NCBI GenBank assembly: GCA_018655525.1
Contig: JABIJM010000030.1
Location: 28,083 to 92,082 of the forward strand
Reading direction: 5' to 3'
DNA from: Candidatus Woesearchaeota archaeon
Lineage (GTDB): Archaea > Nanobdellota > Nanobdellia > Woesearchaeales > GW2011-AR9
DNA: 64,000 nucleotides
Shown here one piece after another: positions 427 to 53,982 of the stretch. The notes beneath the pieces were generated by a model. That model worked only from the letters and a program-made list of their open reading frames with translations, ran no database searches and was not told the origin of the DNA. Position 1 is the first letter of the stretch, and every line of letters begins with the position of its first letter. Position numbers and translations under genes: made by a program.

Positions 427-1710
427 CTATTTCTTCTTTTTCGCATTAAATGTGAAACCAAAGATTTTAAGAGGCCGATTTTTCTTTTTATAATTCCGAT
501 AGTAGTAATAATACAATCCACCGAGTACAATTAAAATGAACACGAAGAAGCCAGTACTACTTTTTTCAATGATTCCAAATTTCTTTAATTCTGAGGTAGA
601 ATATAAGTCAAAGGTCAAATCAAACTGTTGTTGGAATGGTTTATTATTTGAATCAACATATTTTAATTTAACAGGAACATGTAGCACATCCCTTCTTTTA
701 TTCACATAAACATCAAGCTCTTCACTTTCTGTATCATCAGAATCTATATCACCAATGTAAAAATAATTTGTAGGAGAAACCAATTTATAATCTTCTGATT
801 CTTCTAAAATTAATTCTACAAATTTTACATCTGCAGTCCCTGCATTCGCAATTCCAAGTGTAATTTTTCCAGATTCACCTGATTGAAAAACCGTAGTTTT
901 CTTAATAAAAGGACGAACTTTAGGGACATCCCCCACAGAAACTGCTAAAAAGTCATCAAGAGAATATGCACTTCCTTTCTCATCATTATATGTAATGGTC
1001 ACTGGAACTTTATATAATCCAGGTGTTGCATCAGGTTTTGCAATAATCCGAAATGTTAACGCATCTTGAAAATCATTATTTAAGTTAGAGATTCTCCTTT
1101 CAGAAGAACTTTGGAATGGTGCTAATGGAATATCGTCACCATCAAAATCTAATTTGAATTTAATATCTTTTAATAAAGAATCTGCTTCATTTTTGACAAC
1201 AATCGTTACTTTAGCATCTTCTCCTGGTGCAACTTGTTCTGGTTCAGATTTAATAGAAATAATATCTAAGATTGCATCCTGTGTTTGCACATCAATTAAA
1301 AATTGATCATCAACAAATGTTACTGAATTTGTGCCTAAGTTTACTTCTACTTCTAATTCAAGATCACCTTCAACTGCATCCTCATCAACTTTCAAGGTAA
1401 AAGTAACATATTCTGCATCTGCTCCGGTAGAACTTGCACGTAATTTCCCGAGGTTTTTAGAAGCTGATTCCCCGTACATTTTAAAGGGATATTTTGGATG
1501 TAAAGTCATAATTGCATCTTTATTTGTTTCTTCAGCTTGATTCTCTATTTTAAACTTCACATCAAAAATTTGACCGGGTTCAACTGGATCAGGGGTCTGT
1601 GAAACTAATGTGACAGAGATATCTGAAACGTCTGCAACTGCCAAAGGAATTAATGACAAAAGAAAAATGCTAAGTACAACTAATAAAATTGTTTTTTTTG
1701 AAACCACCAT
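427..1710 (-). CDS. Secreted or cell-surface protein with N-terminal signal/TM, beta-sandwich (CARDB-like) repeats, C-terminal TM and a short basic tail
   Basis: N-terminal hydrophobic segment, acidic repetitive body, C-terminal FFVFILIVLGGLYYYY TM followed by a KKKNRPLK tail. It lies directly upstream of the FtsX-type permease on the same strand. Confidence 0.45.
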   Translation of the reverse strand: MVVSKKTILLVVLSIFLLSLIPLAVADVSDISVTLVSQTPDPVEPGQIFDVKFKIENQAEETNKDAIMTLHPKYPFKMYGESASKNLGKLRASSTGADAEYVTFTLKVDEDAVEGDLELEVEVNLGTNSVTFVDDQFLIDVQTQDAILDIISIKSEPEQVAPGEDAKVTIVVKNEADSLLKDIKFKLDFDGDDIPLAPFQSSSERRISNLNNDFQDALTFRIIAKPDATPGLYKVPVTITYNDEKGSAYSLDDFLAVSVGDVPKVRPFIKKTTVFQSGESGKITLGIANAGTADVKFVELILEESEDYKLVSPTNYFYIGDIDSDDTESEELDVYVNKRRDVLHVPVKLKYVDSNNKPFQQQFDLTFDLYSTSELKKFGIIEKSSTGFFVFILIVLGGLYYYYYRNYKKKNRPLKIFGFTFNAKKKK

Positions 1711-1792
1711 TTTTAAGTGTAGGAGAACTTTATAATTTATAAATGTTCTGATAAAGGTAAGATTAATAAAGGAATTTGCTTTTATTTCTTCA

Positions 1793-9715: not shown

Positions 9716-9832
9716 GCCTCTGTAGCATAGTGGCTAATGCGTCTGCCTCGTAAAATCTAGGTTTCCTTGATTTGTTCAGAAATCTTGATTTCAGACAGCA
9801 GAAGATCGGGAGTTCAAATCTCCCCAGGGGCT
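9716..9832 (+). tRNA. tRNA-Thr (anticodon CGU) with a 44-nt canonical intron (9753..9796) after position 37
   Basis: Hand-folded cloverleaf. Acceptor GCCTCTG/CAGGGGC (one G-U), U8 A9, D-arm GCAT-AGTGGCTA-ATGC, anticodon stem TCTGC/GCAGA interrupted by the intron, T-arm GGGAG-TTCAAAT-CTCCC, discriminator U. Oligo-T follows. Confidence 0.75.
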
Positions 9833-40007: not shown

Positions 40008-40358
40008 ATGATCACAATATACTACAACTCAAAATGTAGCAAATGTAGACAAACGCTTGCATTATTACAAGAAAAAACAGATGAAGAGATTAATATCATT
40101 GAATATCTAAAAACGCCACCTTCAATTGAAGAACTTCAACAAATCCTACAAAAATTAAATCTAAATCCTCAAGAGATCATCAGAAAAGGTGAAGAAGAAT
40201 TTCAAGAATTTAAGGGAAAAGAATTCTCAGATAAAGAATGGATCCAGATATTACACGATCACCCAAAATTAATTCAACGACCAATTGTAATTATAAATGA
40301 GAAAGCAGTTATTGCACGACCACCAGAAAATGTGTTAAAAATATTACAACTCCCGTAA
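40008..40358 (+). CDS. ArsC/Spx-family thioredoxin-fold protein
   Basis: MITIYYNSKCSKCRQTLALL (CxxC near the N-terminus), IQRPIVIINEKAVIARP. 116 aa. Confidence 0.7.
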   Translation: MITIYYNSKCSKCRQTLALLQEKTDEEINIIEYLKTPPSIEELQQILQKLNLNPQEIIRKGEEEFQEFKGKEFSDKEWIQILHDHPKLIQRPIVIINEKAVIARPPENVLKILQLP

Positions 40359-42974
40359 CTTCTTCAAGGTATCATCAACATGTGTTTTCTTTTCCTTAAT
40401 TGCTTTTGGAGATCCACCACCATGCCATGTAAATCGTGGACGCATTTGTACAGGGAAAATACGTTCATTTGCATCATCAAAGACAACTGCTGCTCCTTTC
40501 ACACGCGGGAGATGATCTATTTCATCTACCAATCCAGTACGCATGTAACTCTGTGTTAATTGTCCTAACGCCTCTGTATCCATTTGTGCTGTTAATCTAT
40601 GAGCAAGAACCGTATCTGATTGTGTCATAACATCTGTGTGAATTTTTGCAGGTTGTTGAGTTGCAAGAATTAAACTGATTCCTGGTTGACGTCCTTCACG
40701 TAAAATTGTAATTAATGCATCTGAAGCTGCTGTTTTTCCATCATGAGGAAGAAGTTCATGTGCTTCATCAATTGCGAGCCATACTAACGGTTCTGTCATT
40801 TTTTCTTCAGTATCTTTAGAAAAATAATGCATTGCAGCATCTACAGATTTGAATTCTTCTGTCTTTCGTGCAAGCATTCTTTGATTAAACAATGTCCGAC
40901 TAATTAAACCTACAACTAACGCTTTAATTTCCCAACCAGAAGCCATAGTTGCATAAGGAGAAACATCTAAAACAGTTACTTGACCGCCTGCAACAATATC
41001 CTTCAAGGGGGTTCCTTCTTTAGAAAAAATACCCCATCCTTTTGCTTTTTGAAATTGATTTTCAACAATATTTCTTACAACTTTTTCTGAATCTTTTTCT
41101 TGAGAGATAAGAGAAATGAGTTCTTCCATATCATAAGACTCATTTTTATCTTTTAAATTTTGAACCACTTTTGAAATAAGAACACCTTCAGCAGTATTCA
41201 ATGAAATGTCAAATGCCCGACTCCAGTCTAAAGGATCAACATCAATTGGACGTATTGAAAACGGAAAATCTGTAGGGATTCCTTGTTCTTTATATTTGTA
41301 AAAGAAACCTGAAGGGGTATAAATTTTGACATCTAATGCCTTTGGATCAAATCCCCATTGTTTCACGAGATCTGAGTCTTGAAGATTAGGATATTTCATT
41401 GTCCAATAAATACCCATCGTATCCAATAAAACAATAGAAAGGTTTTGTTTGATTTCAACGGGTAAATCCGCTAAACCTTCTGCAATAGAACCCATGGTGT
41501 ATGAATTATGAACAATGATACCATTAGCAACAAAATTGTGAGTTTCAGGAACAGTAATGTCATAAACAGTTTCATTTCCTTCAATTTCTTTGATAGCCAC
41601 TATTTCATCCCAAAAAATATCTGAATTCGCAAACTTAGAAAGTAAATCAGATTCATCTGCAACAGCAATTTGTAATAATTTTTGTCGTGAAGGAGAATAT
41701 TTTGTACTTTCACGTAAAGCTTTAGGATGAGCATAACCCATCTTCCTTCCAATTGCTGCCCAATTATCTGGTTTATACATATCCCAAATTTCTTTTGGAA
41801 CAGTATCAACATTAGGGTTTCTAATAATTTTCACTGATTCTTTTAAAGCAATTACAGAACGTTCTTCTTTTTTACCATAAAAACCTATCTCCTGAAGATA
41901 CGTGTTAACATTTTCTCCATAAATCTCCAATTCATTAGCCTCAAATCCCTTTTGATTAACTTTTTTACGGATTTTAGCTACAATTCCGAAACGTAATAAT
42001 AAATGTTGTACCTGAGAAATTAATTGATCAGAAATAGAACAATAACTTACAAACCAATGATTTGCTTTTTTGTAAATTGTCCCATCGCAAGAAAACAAAC
42101 GATTTAAAAATAAACTAATTTGATGTTTTGGCATTGTAAAAATACAATCAGGAACAAATTTTGTTAAAGACCTAGTCTCATAAAGTTTAAGTTCTTCAAG
42201 CCAATTACGTATTGATGAATGATCCCATTTTGGATTGTTAATAAATTGTCCATTCTCATCTCTTGAACTTTGCTCTTTCATTACTTTTTTGATTTGGGAA
42301 ACTCTAAAGCAAGAATCATCACTGTGCCGTTCAATTCTTAAATTATCATCAAAATCATAAACTGATTGTTTAAAATCTGAAACAATTTTTTGATCTTTAT
42401 TAGAAAATAAAACAAATCTATTTCCTAAATGGCCTTCAGCAATAAGATAAGCTAAAAGTTTAACTTCACATTCCTTTATTGATAAATCACCAAAAGATTC
42501 CAATTTACGTGGTGTTGCAACTCTTGAACCTATATTCAATTTTTCTATTGGAGACCAACCCTTAACAGTTAACAATGGATGCTCCGGAGTTAATTTAATG
42601 ATTTTACCGGTTCTAAACTTAACTTCAAATATTCGATCAACCTCCCTTTTATAAAAGTGAGATTTTTGACCTTCTTGAATCTTAAAATCAGAATTTAAAG
42701 TATAAATATTTTGATTCTTTTCTTCTAAATCTTTAATTTTTACAAGAGAACCATCATCAAGTGTAATTAAAGTATCACCATGAAGACATTTTCCACTCCC
42801 TCTTTTGCCGACGATAAAGACAACATGCGCTCCTGCGACATCCATGTACACAGGATTAGAAAGAGATGTGGTTTGACCCATCTTAACATATTGTTTTCCA
42901 ATAAGAACGGTTCCTTCCTTGCCAAACTTTTCCACGTCTTTTTTGCTTCTGCCGATAATAACATCAAACACCAT
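40344..42974 (-). CDS. HerA/DUF87-type P-loop ATPase (FtsK-HerA superfamily) interrupted by an intein in the Walker A motif
   Basis: Extein: VVFIVGKRGSGK|SYTMGS (Walker A), LAIDEAHELLP (Walker B), ILATQQPAKI (DUF87 ATQRP-like). Extein total about 448 aa. Confidence 0.6.
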   Translation of the reverse strand: MVFDVIIGRSKKDVEKFGKEGTVLIGKQYVKMGQTTSLSNPVYMDVAGAHVVFIVGKRGSGKCLHGDTLITLDDGSLVKIKDLEEKNQNIYTLNSDFKIQEGQKSHFYKREVDRIFEVKFRTGKIIKLTPEHPLLTVKGWSPIEKLNIGSRVATPRKLESFGDLSIKECEVKLLAYLIAEGHLGNRFVLFSNKDQKIVSDFKQSVYDFDDNLRIERHSDDSCFRVSQIKKVMKEQSSRDENGQFINNPKWDHSSIRNWLEELKLYETRSLTKFVPDCIFTMPKHQISLFLNRLFSCDGTIYKKANHWFVSYCSISDQLISQVQHLLLRFGIVAKIRKKVNQKGFEANELEIYGENVNTYLQEIGFYGKKEERSVIALKESVKIIRNPNVDTVPKEIWDMYKPDNWAAIGRKMGYAHPKALRESTKYSPSRQKLLQIAVADESDLLSKFANSDIFWDEIVAIKEIEGNETVYDITVPETHNFVANGIIVHNSYTMGSIAEGLADLPVEIKQNLSIVLLDTMGIYWTMKYPNLQDSDLVKQWGFDPKALDVKIYTPSGFFYKYKEQGIPTDFPFSIRPIDVDPLDWSRAFDISLNTAEGVLISKVVQNLKDKNESYDMEELISLISQEKDSEKVVRNIVENQFQKAKGWGIFSKEGTPLKDIVAGGQVTVLDVSPYATMASGWEIKALVVGLISRTLFNQRMLARKTEEFKSVDAAMHYFSKDTEEKMTEPLVWLAIDEAHELLPHDGKTAASDALITILREGRQPGISLILATQQPAKIHTDVMTQSDTVLAHRLTAQMDTEALGQLTQSYMRTGLVDEIDHLPRVKGAAVVFDDANERIFPVQMRPRFTWHGGGSPKAIKEKKTHVDDTLKKLREL
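41505..42788 (-). mobile_element. Intein (428 aa) with an embedded LAGLIDADG homing-endonuclease domain
   Basis: Starts CLHGDTLITLDDG and ends IIVHN|S. Internal LLAYLIAEGHLGN and LNRLFSCDGTIY motifs. Inserted after the Lys of GKRGSGK. Confidence 0.7.
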
Positions 42975-51962: not shown

Positions 51963-52571
51963 TCAACATTTCTTCCCAATAATCATTTCCTTATAAGAAC
52001 TCAATTCTGAAGGAACATCTATTCTTTCTAAGTCCAACTTCTGAAATCCAGAATCGCTAATCAACACGCCACCTTGATTCAAAGAATCAAATACCTTATT
52101 TTCATAATTAGGATCAGAATCTTTCATAATTCTGAAAGCACGTTCAAAGTAAATATCATGTTTTGGTAAATCAATCTGGAATACATTTGCAACATCAAAT
52201 TTCACATGAATCAAGATTCCATTCCAATAAAAAGAATTATGTGAATCTATTGAAATACCTAAATCATGCAATATTGAGTTCATTAAAAGAAGACAATTAT
52301 GAATGTCCATAAAATGGAACGTAATTTCTTTAATTTCTGGAAACAGATGTTCCACAAAAAGACAAGGAAAAATAATATCTGCCCCTGATCCTGGATAAAA
52401 TAATATTGAATTATCCGAAACCCGTAACTTCTGAATCTTTTCCAACAATTGAATATTATCAAAATCATCATCAAACATATGGTTTTTGAGAGAATTTTGA
52501 CTTATCTGATGATCTTTATCAAGTTCTTTGAATACTACTTCTTTAGGGATATCTGTGATCAAATTAGCCAT
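51963..52571 (-). CDS. Hypothetical protein
   Basis: 202-aa ORF. No family recognised. Confidence 0.3.
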   Translation of the reverse strand: MANLITDIPKEVVFKELDKDHQISQNSLKNHMFDDDFDNIQLLEKIQKLRVSDNSILFYPGSGADIIFPCLFVEHLFPEIKEITFHFMDIHNCLLLMNSILHDLGISIDSHNSFYWNGILIHVKFDVANVFQIDLPKHDIYFERAFRIMKDSDPNYENKVFDSLNQGGVLISDSGFQKLDLERIDVPSELSSYKEMIIGKKC

Positions 52572-52627
52572 AAACAGGAGTTACATACGAAATATTTAAA
52601 AGTTGTCTGTTGATATAAGGTAATTGT

Positions 52628-52727
52628 GGGCCTGTAGCCTAGCCTGGATAGGGCGCCAGCCTTCTATATGAGAAAGCAATTCTCTGAAGGCAGCTGGATA
52701 CCGTGGGTTCGAATCCCTCCTGGCCCG
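52628..52727 (+). tRNA. tRNA-Arg (anticodon UCU) with a 25-nt intron (52667..52691) after position 37
   Basis: Acceptor GGGCCTG/CTGGCCC (one U-U), D-arm GCCT-AGCCTGGATA-GGGC, anticodon stem CCAGC/GCTGG around loop CUUCUA+A, T-arm GTGGG-TTCGAAT-CCCTC (one U-U), discriminator G. Confidence 0.55.
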
Positions 52728-52945
52728 CTCTTTCTTTTTATTTCTTGTTGAATTTAATATATTCCCAATTTATAGCAATTATTAAAGCAAAACAATATTA
52801 AAAATTCCAGATTAATTTTGATTTTGTCTAGTGCCAGAGGATTTAATCTTTAATAATTTGGGCATTTCAGCATGTTTTAACAACAAAATTCCACACTGGA
52901 CAACTACGCGTATAACTTATAAATACATTTTTCCATTTAATTCTA

Positions 52946-53662
52946 ATGAAAATGGATAAAATAAATTTATATGAGTTTATTGGAATTATGATTGGTGATG
53001 GATGTTTATTAGATTATCCTAAACATAACATTTATGGTATAGAAATAACGGGAAACGCAACTGAAGAAGTAGATTTTTATAAAAAAATAGAAGAGTTCAT
53101 TAAATCAAATTTTGATGTGAATGTAAGAGTTCATGTTCGTAAAGATAAAACGGGACAATCCTTAAAATTAATTTGTTACAGCAAAATACTAGCAAATTTT
53201 CTAAAGAAACAAGGTATAAAAAGAAATAAAACCTATTCAACACAAATTCCAAGTCATTTATTAGAATGGAAATACAGTAAATATGTGATTAAAGGAATCT
53301 TTGAAACTGATGGCTGCATTTATTTCTCTAAATCTAAAAAGATAGCTTATCCAACCTATCCGCGTCTTGAAATTTGTACAGCTAGTTTACAGTTAGCTAC
53401 TCAAATCATTAAAATTTTAAACACAAATGGATTTACCGCAAGATCATATATTAACAAAAACACGATAACTATTTATATGAGCGGTGAAAATATGCTTAAT
53501 AAGTGGTCTACAGAGATAGGCTGGAGCGGTCTAAAAAATCAAACAAAATATGACCTTTGGAAATCTTTAGGATACTACATCCCAAAAATTTCACTTCCAG
53601 AAAGATTAAAATTATTAGGCGTCGGTGGCAAAGTGGCTAATATTGACCTCATAAGTCGATAG
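52946..53662 (+). CDS. LAGLIDADG homing endonuclease (double-motif)
   Basis: FIGIMIGDGCL and IKGIFETDGCIY motifs. Paralog of 21160..21864. Its last about 14 codons overlap the 5' exon of the downstream tRNA-Cys candidate. Confidence 0.7.
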   Translation: MKMDKINLYEFIGIMIGDGCLLDYPKHNIYGIEITGNATEEVDFYKKIEEFIKSNFDVNVRVHVRKDKTGQSLKLICYSKILANFLKKQGIKRNKTYSTQIPSHLLEWKYSKYVIKGIFETDGCIYFSKSKKIAYPTYPRLEICTASLQLATQIIKILNTNGFTARSYINKNTITIYMSGENMLNKWSTEIGWSGLKNQTKYDLWKSLGYYIPKISLPERLKLLGVGGKVANIDLISR

Positions 53663-53715
53663 CAAGCAGTCCCCTGCAGAGGGACGGATCGGGGGTTCGA
53701 GTCCCTCCCGGCGCT
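53619..53715 (+). tRNA. tRNA-Cys (anticodon GCA) candidate with a 21-nt non-canonical insertion (53648..53668) between D-arm and anticodon stem
   Basis: The 3' part is unambiguous: anticodon arm GTCCC-CUGCAGA-GGGAC, variable GGATC, T-arm GGGGG-TTCGAGT-CCCTC, acceptor 3' CCGGCGC, discriminator U. The candidate 5' part GCGTCGG-TG-GCAA-AGTGGCTAATA-TTGA has a perfect acceptor match and D-loop invariants, but a weak D-stem. Confidence 0.45.
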
Positions 53716-53745
53716 TCATTTTTAATCTTTAATTTAGAATACCAT

Positions 53746-53982
53746 TCAAAGTTGATTCCCTTCTACAAACCCAGTTCCAAAACCCTTCAACTTCTGACAT
53801 AATGCAACTGCATCCCTAACATCTTCATAGAAATCATATAACTTTATCAATTCTCCATCAGCTTTCCGAATTTTCGTATGTTTCAAGCAACTACAACACC
53901 TCAGAACTGCTGTCATCATATCATTTATTTGAATCGTTTGCAACGTGTTACACTTCGGACAATTAGCTACAGTAAATATCAT
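53746..53982 (-). CDS. Small Cys-rich (zinc-ribbon-like) protein
   Basis: NCPKCNT...RCCSCLKH. 78 aa. Confidence 0.35.
   Translation of the reverse strand: MIFTVANCPKCNTLQTIQINDMMTAVLRCCSCLKHTKIRKADGELIKLYDFYEDVRDAVALCQKLKGFGTGFVEGNQL

Follow-up and report, generated by a model that had tools for sequence, protein, structure and literature searches.

The described enzymes that most resemble the one considered here, I-DmoI and I-Tsp061I, have their genes inside bulge-helix-bulge (BHB) introns in rRNA genes, and their homing target is the rRNA allele without the intron. More broadly, rRNA introns and inteins are where archaeal LAGLIDADG genes are known to occur, and those known in DPANN archaea lie in rRNA introns (PMC6125680). 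The gene that we describe, by contrast, is free-standing in a spacer between tRNA-Arg(UCU) and tRNA-Cys(GCA) on contig JABIJM010000030.1 of a Candidatus Woesearchaeota archaeon, of which a stretch of 64 kb was analyzed (the window; its allele of the locus is called WIN, and L-numbers denote the loci of relatives compared with it). We read it, with a probability of roughly 0.7, as a homing-endonuclease gene of the LAGLIDADG type, free-standing in a recurrent niche at the flank of tRNA-Cys, next to an ordinary BHB intron and overlapping the tRNA gene only incidentally. Each feature alone—the non-canonical BHB intron, the LAGLIDADG gene—is ordinary for DPANN archaea; what appears to be new is the comparative picture, since full-text literature searches found no description of a recurrent LAGLIDADG/tRNA-Cys arrangement.

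A free-standing endonuclease gene lodged between tRNA genes has a parallel in SegB of phage T4, which is said, in 2008 work by Brok-Volchanskaya and colleagues, to promote the inheritance of itself and of the neighboring tRNA region. SegB belongs to the free-standing homing endonucleases, and its gene lies in a tRNA gene cluster (PMC13096335). However, SegB is a GIY-YIG enzyme of a phage in bacteria, whereas the gene in the window is of the LAGLIDADG type, chromosomal and archaeal, and a search of viral contigs did not recover its family.

The 238-aa protein contains the motifs IGIMIGDG and IKGIFETDG, whose catalytic aspartates (D18 and D122) are invariant among 20 aligned sequences, in an alignment with 30 invariant columns. 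Its homologs, here called family A, number approximately 50 (37–72% identity, 215–257 aa), all from uncultured DPANN archaea. An AlphaFold (AF2) model built from the family alignment (pLDDT 91.8, pTM 0.89) contains two copies of the alpha-beta-beta-alpha-beta-beta-alpha unit and, after them, two additional C-terminal helices (residues 196–225). Foldseek matches this model best to the archaeal intron-encoded I-Tsp061I (2DCH; E 1e-10, TM 0.73), and then to intein endonuclease domains, bI3 maturase, I-SceI, I-AniI, and I-DmoI (E up to 1e-7); a profile search of the PDB with the protein also matches 2DCH and I-DmoI. I-DmoI, I-Tsp061I, and the window protein have the fold in common, are similar in size, and carry two LAGLIDADG helices that each terminate in a conserved acidic residue, but identity to the two enzymes is only 16–19%, and the two C-terminal helices are additional in the window protein. 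The model supports, with confidence, a predicted I-DmoI/I-Tsp061I-like monomeric enzyme with a double LAGLIDADG motif, which would be an active nuclease with a target site of its own. Encoding within an intron or intein is not indicated: the open reading frame (ORF) begins 673 nt upstream of tRNA-Cys with only its last 21 nt inside the 24-nt tRNA intron, Rfam (E up to 1) finds no group I or group II intron or other RNA family in 52500..53850 besides the tRNAs, and Pfam finds no intein domain in the protein. A second, unrelated LAGLIDADG element is present in the same 64 kb, where an 876-aa ORF (40344-42974, minus strand) with the Pfam domains Intein_splicing and LAGLIDADG_3 represents an intein with its own homing-endonuclease domain.

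The recurrence of the niche is seen in the linkage of family A to tRNA-Cys. A scan of one genome per GTDB species yielded 32 family-A loci (L006–L037), and in 30 of these a tRNA-Cys, with its CTGCA anticodon loop, lies directly downstream on the same strand. The exceptions are L034, a decayed copy without a tRNA-Cys candidate, and L031, where the tRNA-Cys is convergent yet adjoining, such that the linkage survives inversion; in this Nanoarchaeota metagenome-assembled genome (MAG), the tRNA-Cys (L031:4662-4796) lies on the opposite strand and overlaps the end of the ORF. Six further family-A loci fetched through protein look-ups (L101–L106) are likewise found beside tRNA-Cys. Approximately 40 family-A relatives are thereby placed in MAGs of Woesearchaeota, Pacearchaeota, and Nanoarchaeota, almost all directly adjoining tRNA-Cys. 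Upstream, a tRNA-Arg(TCT) is usual; loci with it include the window and L006, L013, L015, L017, L019, L024, L028, L037, and L101, and, with the tRNA-Arg inverted, L018 and L107. The original prediction, made from the letters of the window, that a homing-endonuclease-type gene is lodged between tRNA-Arg and tRNA-Cys is therefore upheld by the PF14528 match, the fold, and this conserved linkage.

The niche is not always occupied. A metagenome scan whose pattern derived solely from the 3' half of the clade's tRNA-Cys, and was blind to upstream content, recovered 21 loci; among the 15 distinct alleles of this unbiased sample, four carry family A, two carry a second LAGLIDADG family (family B, discussed below), and nine carry neither. 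Empty alleles consist of tRNA-Arg, a spacer of 50 nt (L085 and L100), and an intron-less tRNA-Cys, with a 12-nt spacer in L089. Synteny between these three loci and the occupied ones (the window, L007, and L099) extends to both flanks, with PPIase, a 202-aa gene, and tRNA-Arg to the left and NFACT to the right, and it identifies the endonuclease gene as a clean indel of ~0.9 kb. The tRNA-Cys genes of L089 (empty) and L093 (family B) are identical to those of the family-A-bearing L007, L021, and L099. Eight family-A copies, about one in five, are decayed or deleted: L006 and L094 have in-frame stops; L032, L033, L034, L035, and L037 have frameshifts; and a ~590-nt internal deletion of an L008-like gene in L098 has left 45 codons and an intron at tRNA position 22/23. 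To judge from these comparisons, family A bears the signature of a selfish element, namely presence or absence at one site, decay, and a patchy distribution. Under classical intron-less homing, the enzyme would cut endonuclease-free tRNA-Arg/tRNA-Cys loci in or near the highly conserved tRNA genes, and repair from the endonuclease-bearing copy would copy the gene into the spacer; we infer that the family-A gene homes in this manner.

Host phylogeny offers a further view of this distribution. Neighbor-joining trees of the flanking host proteins, which carry no support values, interleave family-A, family-B, and empty alleles, placing L098 beside L100 and L008 beside L081, and the identity of endonucleases is not significantly related to that of host genes (Spearman 0.27). 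The most discordant pair is WIN and L101, with 71% identity in the endonuclease against 41% in NFACT, while PPIase puts L101 closer. Horizontal transfer of family A is suggested by these comparisons, but given the disagreement between NFACT and PPIase over L101 and the unsupported trees, it is not claimed here. The comparison of alleles gave no signal for co-conversion of tRNA exons with the endonuclease.

In several endonuclease-free loci (L080, L083, L086, L096, and L088), the place upstream of tRNA-Cys is held by a conserved double zinc-ribbon protein of 127–150 aa (MDIRKTRTCEKCK...), which is sometimes accompanied by a 255-aa protein without a Pfam match; in L097, the double zinc-ribbon gene (L095/L097:6385-6771, reoriented) lies between a family-B gene and tRNA-Cys.

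The tRNA-Cys itself is, by its sequence, a complete, contiguous, and functional-looking gene (coordinates of all features are given in Table 1). Its first exon holds the acceptor 5' strand (GCGTCGG, 53619-25), U8, the 5' strand of the D-stem, the D-loop AGTGGCTA with A14, G15, GG, and A21, and the first two nucleotides of the D-stem 3' strand. The second exon supplies the end of the D-stem, the anticodon arm GTCCC-CTGCAGA-GGGAC (from 53669; GCA at 53676-78), the variable loop, the T-arm GGGGG-TTCGAGT-CCCTC, the acceptor 3' strand (CCGGCGC, 53708-14), which pairs with that of exon 1, and U73, the discriminator base expected for tRNA-Cys from the identity elements of CysRS. An oligo-T tract follows at 53719-23. 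Here the original prediction had been right about the tRNA-Cys(GCA), its acceptor pairing, U8, and the D-loop invariants, all borne out by an end-to-end Rfam match and the sequence. It was right also in proposing a non-canonical tRNA intron; however, the insertion, which it had placed at the 26/27 junction with a length of 21 nt, comprises 24 nt at 23/24 in the D-arm, such that position and length were off by 3 nt. The TTGA that it had taken for the D-stem 3' strand belongs to the hairpin of the intron, as its 5' strand, and the predicted 21-nt insertion has no BHB.

A strict scan for the hBHBh' motif, in which excision is defined by a cut after the second nucleotide of each bulge, finds one motif whose cut sites restore a tRNA, and this motif removes exactly the 24 nt, whose sequence by parts is A-TTGAC-CTCATAA-GTCGA-TAGC-AA. 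Its central helix H is formed by GCTA (53636-39) and TAGC (53660-63), with four Watson-Crick pairs; the bulges ATA (53640-42) and AAG (53664-66) have 3 nt each; the inner helix h' has 5 bp (TTGAC, 53643-47, with GTCGA, 53655-59); and the outer helix h has 2 bp (TG/CA, 53634-35 and 53667-68). A search for a BHB around the junction had been proposed as a check, and the motif so found extends over ~53634..53668. An exhaustive search over acceptor pairs and BHB candidates ranks the same single excision best. The spliced 73-nt tRNA-Cys reaches a cloverleaf score of 32, equal to that of intron-less tRNA-Cys genes; its D-arm, GCAA-AGTGGCTA-ATGC-A, is identical to those of the intron-less orthologs in L007, L009, L020, L021, and L106, and differs from those of L081 and L107 in one D-loop base. 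When introns were shuffled, with the junctions fixed by comparison, a strict BHB arose in register in 215 of 200,000 cases, and in 5 of 200,000 when 5 bp or more were required of the inner helix. The 23/24 junctions are thus supported by three independent lines of evidence: the BHB cut positions, the D-arms of intron-less orthologs, and introns at the same site in L101, L102, L104, and L105.

The insertion is therefore predicted to be a normal tRNA intron of the splicing-endonuclease (BHB) kind at a non-canonical position. In each 3-nt bulge, the cut by the tRNA splicing endonuclease would fall behind the second nucleotide; once a ligase had connected ...GGCUAAU with GCAGUCCC..., the product would be a normal 73-nt tRNA-Cys. 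The gene is probably spliced in this way in vivo. Splicing endonucleases able to cut non-canonical sites are of the (alpha-beta)2 or epsilon2 type (PMC3239211). The minimum free energy (MFE) structure from RNAfold extends the intron hairpin by two pairs in place of the BHB, but RNAfold also misses the BHB of the canonical tRNA-Arg intron in the window, so that a BHB outside the MFE structure is no evidence against the motif. ARAGORN accepted 219 of 630 possible excisions as tRNA-Cys and hence cannot pick the junction. Two excisions of 21 nt were rejected: that of the original prediction (53648-53668) leaves a G10-A25 mismatch and has no BHB, while 53645-53665 gives a perfect D-stem but lacks a BHB, has a D-loop of 11 nt, and yields a mature sequence that no ortholog resembles.

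Table 1. Features of the tRNA-Arg/LAGLIDADG/tRNA-Cys locus in the window, other tRNA and flanking features, and corresponding introns in relatives
Feature	Position	Strand	Length	Evidence or remark
tRNA-Thr(CGT)	9716..9832			Rfam RF00005; typed by ARAGORN
tRNA-Arg(UCU)	52628..52727	+		Rfam RF00005 50.2 bits; ARAGORN -i: tRNA-Arg(tct), 25-nt intron
tRNA-Arg(UCU) intron, canonical 37/38	52667..52691			BHB read from sequence
Conserved upstream element CACTGGACA	52894..52902	+		Only CACTGGWCA match in the 64-kb window
TATA-like box CTTATAAATA	52916..52925	+		~22 nt after the CACTGGACA element
Free-standing LAGLIDADG endonuclease gene (predicted)	52946..53662	+	238 aa	ORF; PF14528 E 9e-7
tRNA-Cys(GCA), intron-bearing	53619..53715	+		Rfam RF00005 43.2 bits, model positions 1-71, one large D-arm insertion
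tRNA-Cys exon 1, positions 1-23	53619..53641	+		Rfam alignment; BHB-guided splice search; identity to intron-less orthologs
BHB intron (predicted), tRNA position 23/24	53642..53665	+	24 nt	Strict hBHBh' motif; relatives; shuffle control
tRNA-Cys exon 2, positions 24-73	53666..53715	+		Rfam; cloverleaf score; sequence
Zinc-ribbon-like ORF and Peptidase_C92/NlpC-P60 gene	53746..54668	-	78 aa; 228 aa	ORFs, Pfam; between tRNA-Cys and NFACT gene
L101 tRNA-Cys 23/24 intron			31 nt	
L102 tRNA-Cys 23/24 intron			20 nt	
L104 tRNA-Cys 23/24 intron			30 nt	
L105 tRNA-Cys 23/24 intron			33 nt	

Non-canonical BHB introns of archaeal tRNAs are well known, having reportedly been described by Marck and Grosjean in 2003 and in the SPLITS studies. 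Those reviewed have, like the intron in the window, a 4-bp central helix and two 3-nt bulges, are cut after the second bulge nucleotide, and lie outside 37/38; they are abundant in Nanoarchaeota/DPANN, as well as in Crenarchaeota (PMC4090602). D-arm introns at 20/21, 22/23, and 25/26 are among those documented, and Nanoarchaeota are rich in non-canonical positions (PMC4090602). The 23/24 intron is therefore a known kind of feature, although this position is not in the review's explicit, open-ended list (PMC4090602), the outer helix in the window is very short (1–2 bp), and the intron holds the stop codon of an overlapping protein gene.

The intron recurs in relatives. All four of the closest endonuclease relatives with DNA (62–71% identity; L101, L102, L104, and L105) have a 23/24 intron, with GCTA as the exonic strand of H in each, TAGC, GAGC, or TAGT as its partner, bulges of the form A-N-A and A-N-G, and inner helices of 3–10 bp that differ in sequence (TTGG/CCAA, TTTGTTCAGA/TCTGGATAAA, TTGGTTCAG/CTGAGCTGA). 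In a junction-proximal alignment of WIN with these four—a small sample of five sequences—90% of cells pair, compared with 20–52% in slid registers, and three pairs have changed on both sides. L008 and L098 have a different, shorter intron one position earlier, at 22/23. Among the tRNA-Cys genes of the 32 family-A loci, eight are intron-less, others have introns after nucleotide 8, 22, 23, 30, or 59/60, and 16 are 101–154 nt long and multiply interrupted, with 28–81 nt of introns. These 16, in which the strict BHB search placed no introns, are those of L011, L012, L014, L015, L017, L019, L022, L023, L026, L027, L030–L033, L035, and L037.

Other introns observed in these loci include one after nucleotide 8 in the tRNA-Cys of L018, L029, and L108, and T-loop introns in the tRNA-Arg of L089 (7290-7490, reoriented) and in the tRNA-Cys of L024 and L028 (after nucleotide 59/60), L105, and L106. 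The 59/60 position in L024 and L028 is that of the intron in the pre-tRNA-Cys of ARMAN-2 (PMC3239211). The tRNA-Cys of L105 has three introns (23/24, 37/38, and T-loop). Across the compared loci, Rfam misses tRNA-Cys more often than its tRNA-Arg neighbor, a hint that tRNA-Cys may be unusually heavily loaded with introns.

The overlap between ORF and tRNA was correctly described in the original prediction, which had the LAGLIDADG ORF read through the 5' exon and stop within the insertion. The conserved core comprises residues 1–224 (...ERLKLL, to 53617); residues 225–232 are coded by exon 1, and residues 233–238 together with the TAG stop (53660-62) by the intron. Residues 228–238 are disordered in the AF2 model. 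Past the core, the tails of homologs differ by lineage and are translations of whatever lies downstream: some translate the 5' end of the tRNA (...GVGGKVAN..., ...CVRGKVAN...), others the intron, and others the tRNA-Cys promoter (...IIPEII*, coded by ATAATACCAGAAATTATATAA, where the stop is the TAA of the TATA box). The stop codon thus falls before, inside, or beyond the tRNA, from a 47-nt gap to an 80-nt overlap relative to its 5' end. Where the gene abuts the tRNA, translation would continue into exon 1 and end at the first in-frame stop, which here is in the intron. Given lineage-specific tails, an overlap that varies from -47 to +80 nt, and a disordered tail, the 14-residue extension and the overlap are best considered incidental, and a side effect of tight packing is the simplest account.

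A closer connection had also been envisaged, in which the insertion is a footprint of the endonuclease that displaced the 5' part of the tRNA or, should an intact tRNA-Cys exist elsewhere in the genome and the BHB be lacking, the 3' part is no more than a fragment of a tRNA or a remnant of integration. That the ORF physically ends inside the insertion would be in keeping with such an origin, and tRNA genes are common integration sites (PMC4090602). But a displacement is not supported: the gene is whole and uninterrupted apart from its intron, and a strict BHB falls precisely where the junctions have to be. This intron, 23 nt into the gene, is of the standard BHB kind, and four other species have it, with covarying helices. 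An overlap with the ORF also occurs where there is no intron, and endonuclease-bearing alleles without an intron are common (L006, L007, L009, L010, L020, L021, L025, and L036). Conversely, L085 and L089, which lack the endonuclease, show tRNA-Arg, a short spacer, and tRNA-Cys without a scar. No other tRNA-Cys is found among the three tRNAs of the window, no second copy of either tRNA-Cys end is present in it at up to 3 mismatches, and no integrase is found among the neighbors. A footprint or fragment is contradicted by these findings and very improbable.

A subtler relation between gene and intron has models outside archaea. In collaborative or trans homing, F-CphI is paired with an intron in psbA and mobE with one in nrdB (PMC2790892), each a free-standing endonuclease gene next to an intron-containing gene, as in the window. 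By analogy, the family-A endonuclease would cut the D-arm of intron-less tRNA-Cys, a 22/23 or 23/24 intron would split the site and protect its carriers, and in the repair of the double-strand break, endonuclease gene, tRNA 5' exon, and intron would be co-converted, the gene and the intron forming a co-mobile pair. Such a model would explain the co-occurrence of D-arm introns with family-A genes: in the window's clade, these introns are found only with a family-A gene or its remnant, in seven lineages (23/24 in WIN, L101, L102, L104, and L105; 22/23 in L008 and L098), and in none of 11 distinct alleles without family A. In the unbiased metagenome sample, they occur in two of four family-A alleles and none of 11 others (Fisher p ~0.06). 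It is also consistent with the 23/24 intron shared by all of the five closest endonucleases (62–71% identity), particularly as NFACT and PPIase make the hosts of L101 and L102 more distant than several endonuclease-free, intron-free relatives. Moreover, the gene abuts the 5' end of tRNA-Cys, with the D-arm within 25–50 bp, and how BHB introns are gained is described as unknown (PMC4090602). However, the introns have arisen independently only twice, and the association is weak once relatedness is considered. Intact family-A genes adjoin intron-less tRNA-Cys genes in L007, L009, L010, L020, L021, L025, and L036, identical to those of L089 and L093; the tRNA exons do not follow the endonuclease; the carriers of the 23/24 intron are basal in the NFACT tree, which also fits vertical inheritance followed by loss; and DPANN tRNAs are intron-rich in general. 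The analogy is itself limited, for F-CphI and mobE act with self-splicing group I introns and with demonstrated cleavage at the insertion site, whereas the window has a BHB intron, a predicted nuclease, and relatives of which many carry no intron. A co-mobile pair is thus an unlikely, if attractive, alternative to a homing gene that merely neighbors an intron.

The same flank is also occupied by family B. The spacers of L093 and L095/L097 hold a different protein of 227–228 aa, with the motifs LARLVADLTGDGHL and LQGLYDAEG (PF14528 E 6e-14). BLAST finds no collinear similarity between the two families, while profile comparison aligns them over the full length (21% identity, probability 97.8%, E 1e-12). 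Family B has ~31 homologs, with catalytic residues D21 and E130 conserved, and all four members with DNA (L093, L097, L107, and L108) adjoin tRNA-Cys; in L107, the stop codon lies inside the acceptor stem. It appears from these sequences that two deeply diverged, free-standing LAGLIDADG families recurrently occupy the same 5' flank of tRNA-Cys across Woesearchaeota, Pacearchaeota, and Nanoarchaeota.

The two families have a DNA element in common. In the window, it lies 52 nt before the ATG of the endonuclease gene. Across 13 aligned loci, CACTGG[AT]CA is invariant and stands at a fixed spacing, with a TATA-like box 20–24 nt downstream; in many cases, CACTAC or a second copy of CACTGG comes ahead of the element. 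Almost all matches to CACTGGWCA among 108 loci lie just upstream of a LAGLIDADG gene of either family (L007:3344, L008:3911, L009:3949, L016:3947, L018:2063, L034:3947, L037:3900, L102:2809, L106:553, L107:1906, L108:461, and L093:2864 on the minus strand), and the empty alleles among the fetched loci lack it. The element may be an operator or promoter element. I-TevI reportedly represses itself through an operator at its own promoter that resembles its homing site (work of Edgell and colleagues, 2004), and the conserved element at a fixed distance from the TATA box could likewise be an operator. Unlike the I-TevI operator, however, it has no significant resemblance to tRNA-Cys: taken as a mimic of the tRNA-Cys 5' end, or target-like operator, it gave position weight matrix scores on tRNA-Cys within the shuffle null and matching those on other tRNAs, and this idea was rejected. 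By inspection of the alignment, the promoter and 5' untranslated region of family-B L107:1882-2003 (~120 nt, including the Shine-Dalgarno sequence GAGGTGAT) are nearly identical to those of family-A L007:3320-3442 and L008:3887-4009, which suggests replacement of the ORF behind a shared regulatory region, or shared cassette ends. In L083, a weak LAGLIDADG-like frame (866-1480, minus strand; 28% identity, E 6e-6) with an internal stop lies ~2 kb from tRNA-Cys, with a CACTGGWCA at 1754-1762 (minus strand), ~275 nt upstream; this may be a third, decayed relative at another place.

Several considerations weigh against a homing endonuclease beside an ordinary intron. The evidence for mobility is all comparative, with host trees that lack support values, and some of the frameshifts could be assembly errors in MAGs. 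Identical tRNA-Cys genes in endonuclease-bearing and endonuclease-free alleles imply that the discriminating target is not wholly inside the tRNA. On the side of the intron, the BHB has an outer helix of only 1–2 bp and is not the thermodynamic optimum, and the spliced D-stem contains an A13-A22 mismatch, though one common to intron-less orthologs. Finally, family A is old (38–72% identity) and always in one place. Either a long vertical descent with repeated losses or a function for the host could account for this. The latter would make it a domesticated LAGLIDADG protein, vertically inherited and tied to tRNA-Cys, for example as a DNA-binding regulator of the tRNA operon in the manner of WhiA, or as an RNA chaperone similar to a maturase. 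A linkage and co-orientation with tRNA-Cys that is strict and long-lived, down to 38% identity, would be expected of such a gene; the 30 invariant columns indicate strong purifying selection, the upstream element common to family B suggests regulated expression, bI3 maturase is among the fold matches, and one source labels a homolog "WhiA." Yet both catalytic aspartates are invariant, while WhiA and pure maturases have typically lost them. The gene is absent, moreover, from syntenic close relatives with the same tRNA-Cys, which already suggest that its loss leaves tRNA-Cys unaffected, ~20% of its copies are decayed or deleted, it occurs in only 32 GTDB species genomes, and a second family is interchangeable with it at the same site. 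In view of the empty alleles, the decayed copies, and the retained catalytic residues, domestication is distinctly unlikely, and the homing-endonuclease gene remains the preferred reading.

The wider setting of the locus, the window as a whole, is archaeal in character and AT-rich (G+C 32.7%). The neighboring genes code for topoisomerase VI, RIO1, NFACT, and Hef-like proteins, and the nearest relatives are MAGs of Woesearchaeota, Nanoarchaeota, and Pacearchaeota. The contig is also present in the samples JGI 3300072015, ERZ4200979, ERZ4200983, and ERZ4200990. The Rfam tRNA model detects three tRNAs in the 64 kb. The intron of tRNA-Arg(UCU) is a textbook case, with anticodon stem CCAGC/GCTGG, central helix CTTC/GAAG, and bulges TAT and GCA, and a T-rich tract directly follows the gene. 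The tRNA-Thr(CGT) has a long 37/38 intron of 44–46 nt; the strict scan found no perfect motif there, and its BHB is thus probably relaxed. On the 3' side of tRNA-Cys, the two minus-strand genes before NFACT are absent from the syntenic L085 and L089, where ~100 nt take their place (blastn), which marks a second variable spot; other genes found in it are MFS in L101, Maf in L102, and a 334-aa ORF in L104.

The locus also shows how a tRNA-Cys can go undetected. In bacterial or single-intron mode, ARAGORN reports 53618..53717 as "tRNA-???"; standard tRNA finders miss or mistype the tRNA-Cys of the window, and gene callers run the ORF across it. Full, decayed, deleted, and empty alleles are all present in public metagenomes, and together provide a natural, testable system for intron-less homing in archaea, while families A and B are potential new long-target meganuclease scaffolds. 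The system also bears on the cause of the unusual fragmentation of tRNA genes in DPANN archaea, which might lie in elements that attack such genes. Should endonuclease and intron prove to be a co-mobile pair, archaeal BHB tRNA introns would have their first mechanism of spread at the level of DNA, and the two LAGLIDADG families, with the promoter and CACTGG element that they share, would be competitors for the same homing site. Such a pair would also give direct support to the idea that tRNA introns arose as protection against elements that target tRNA genes.

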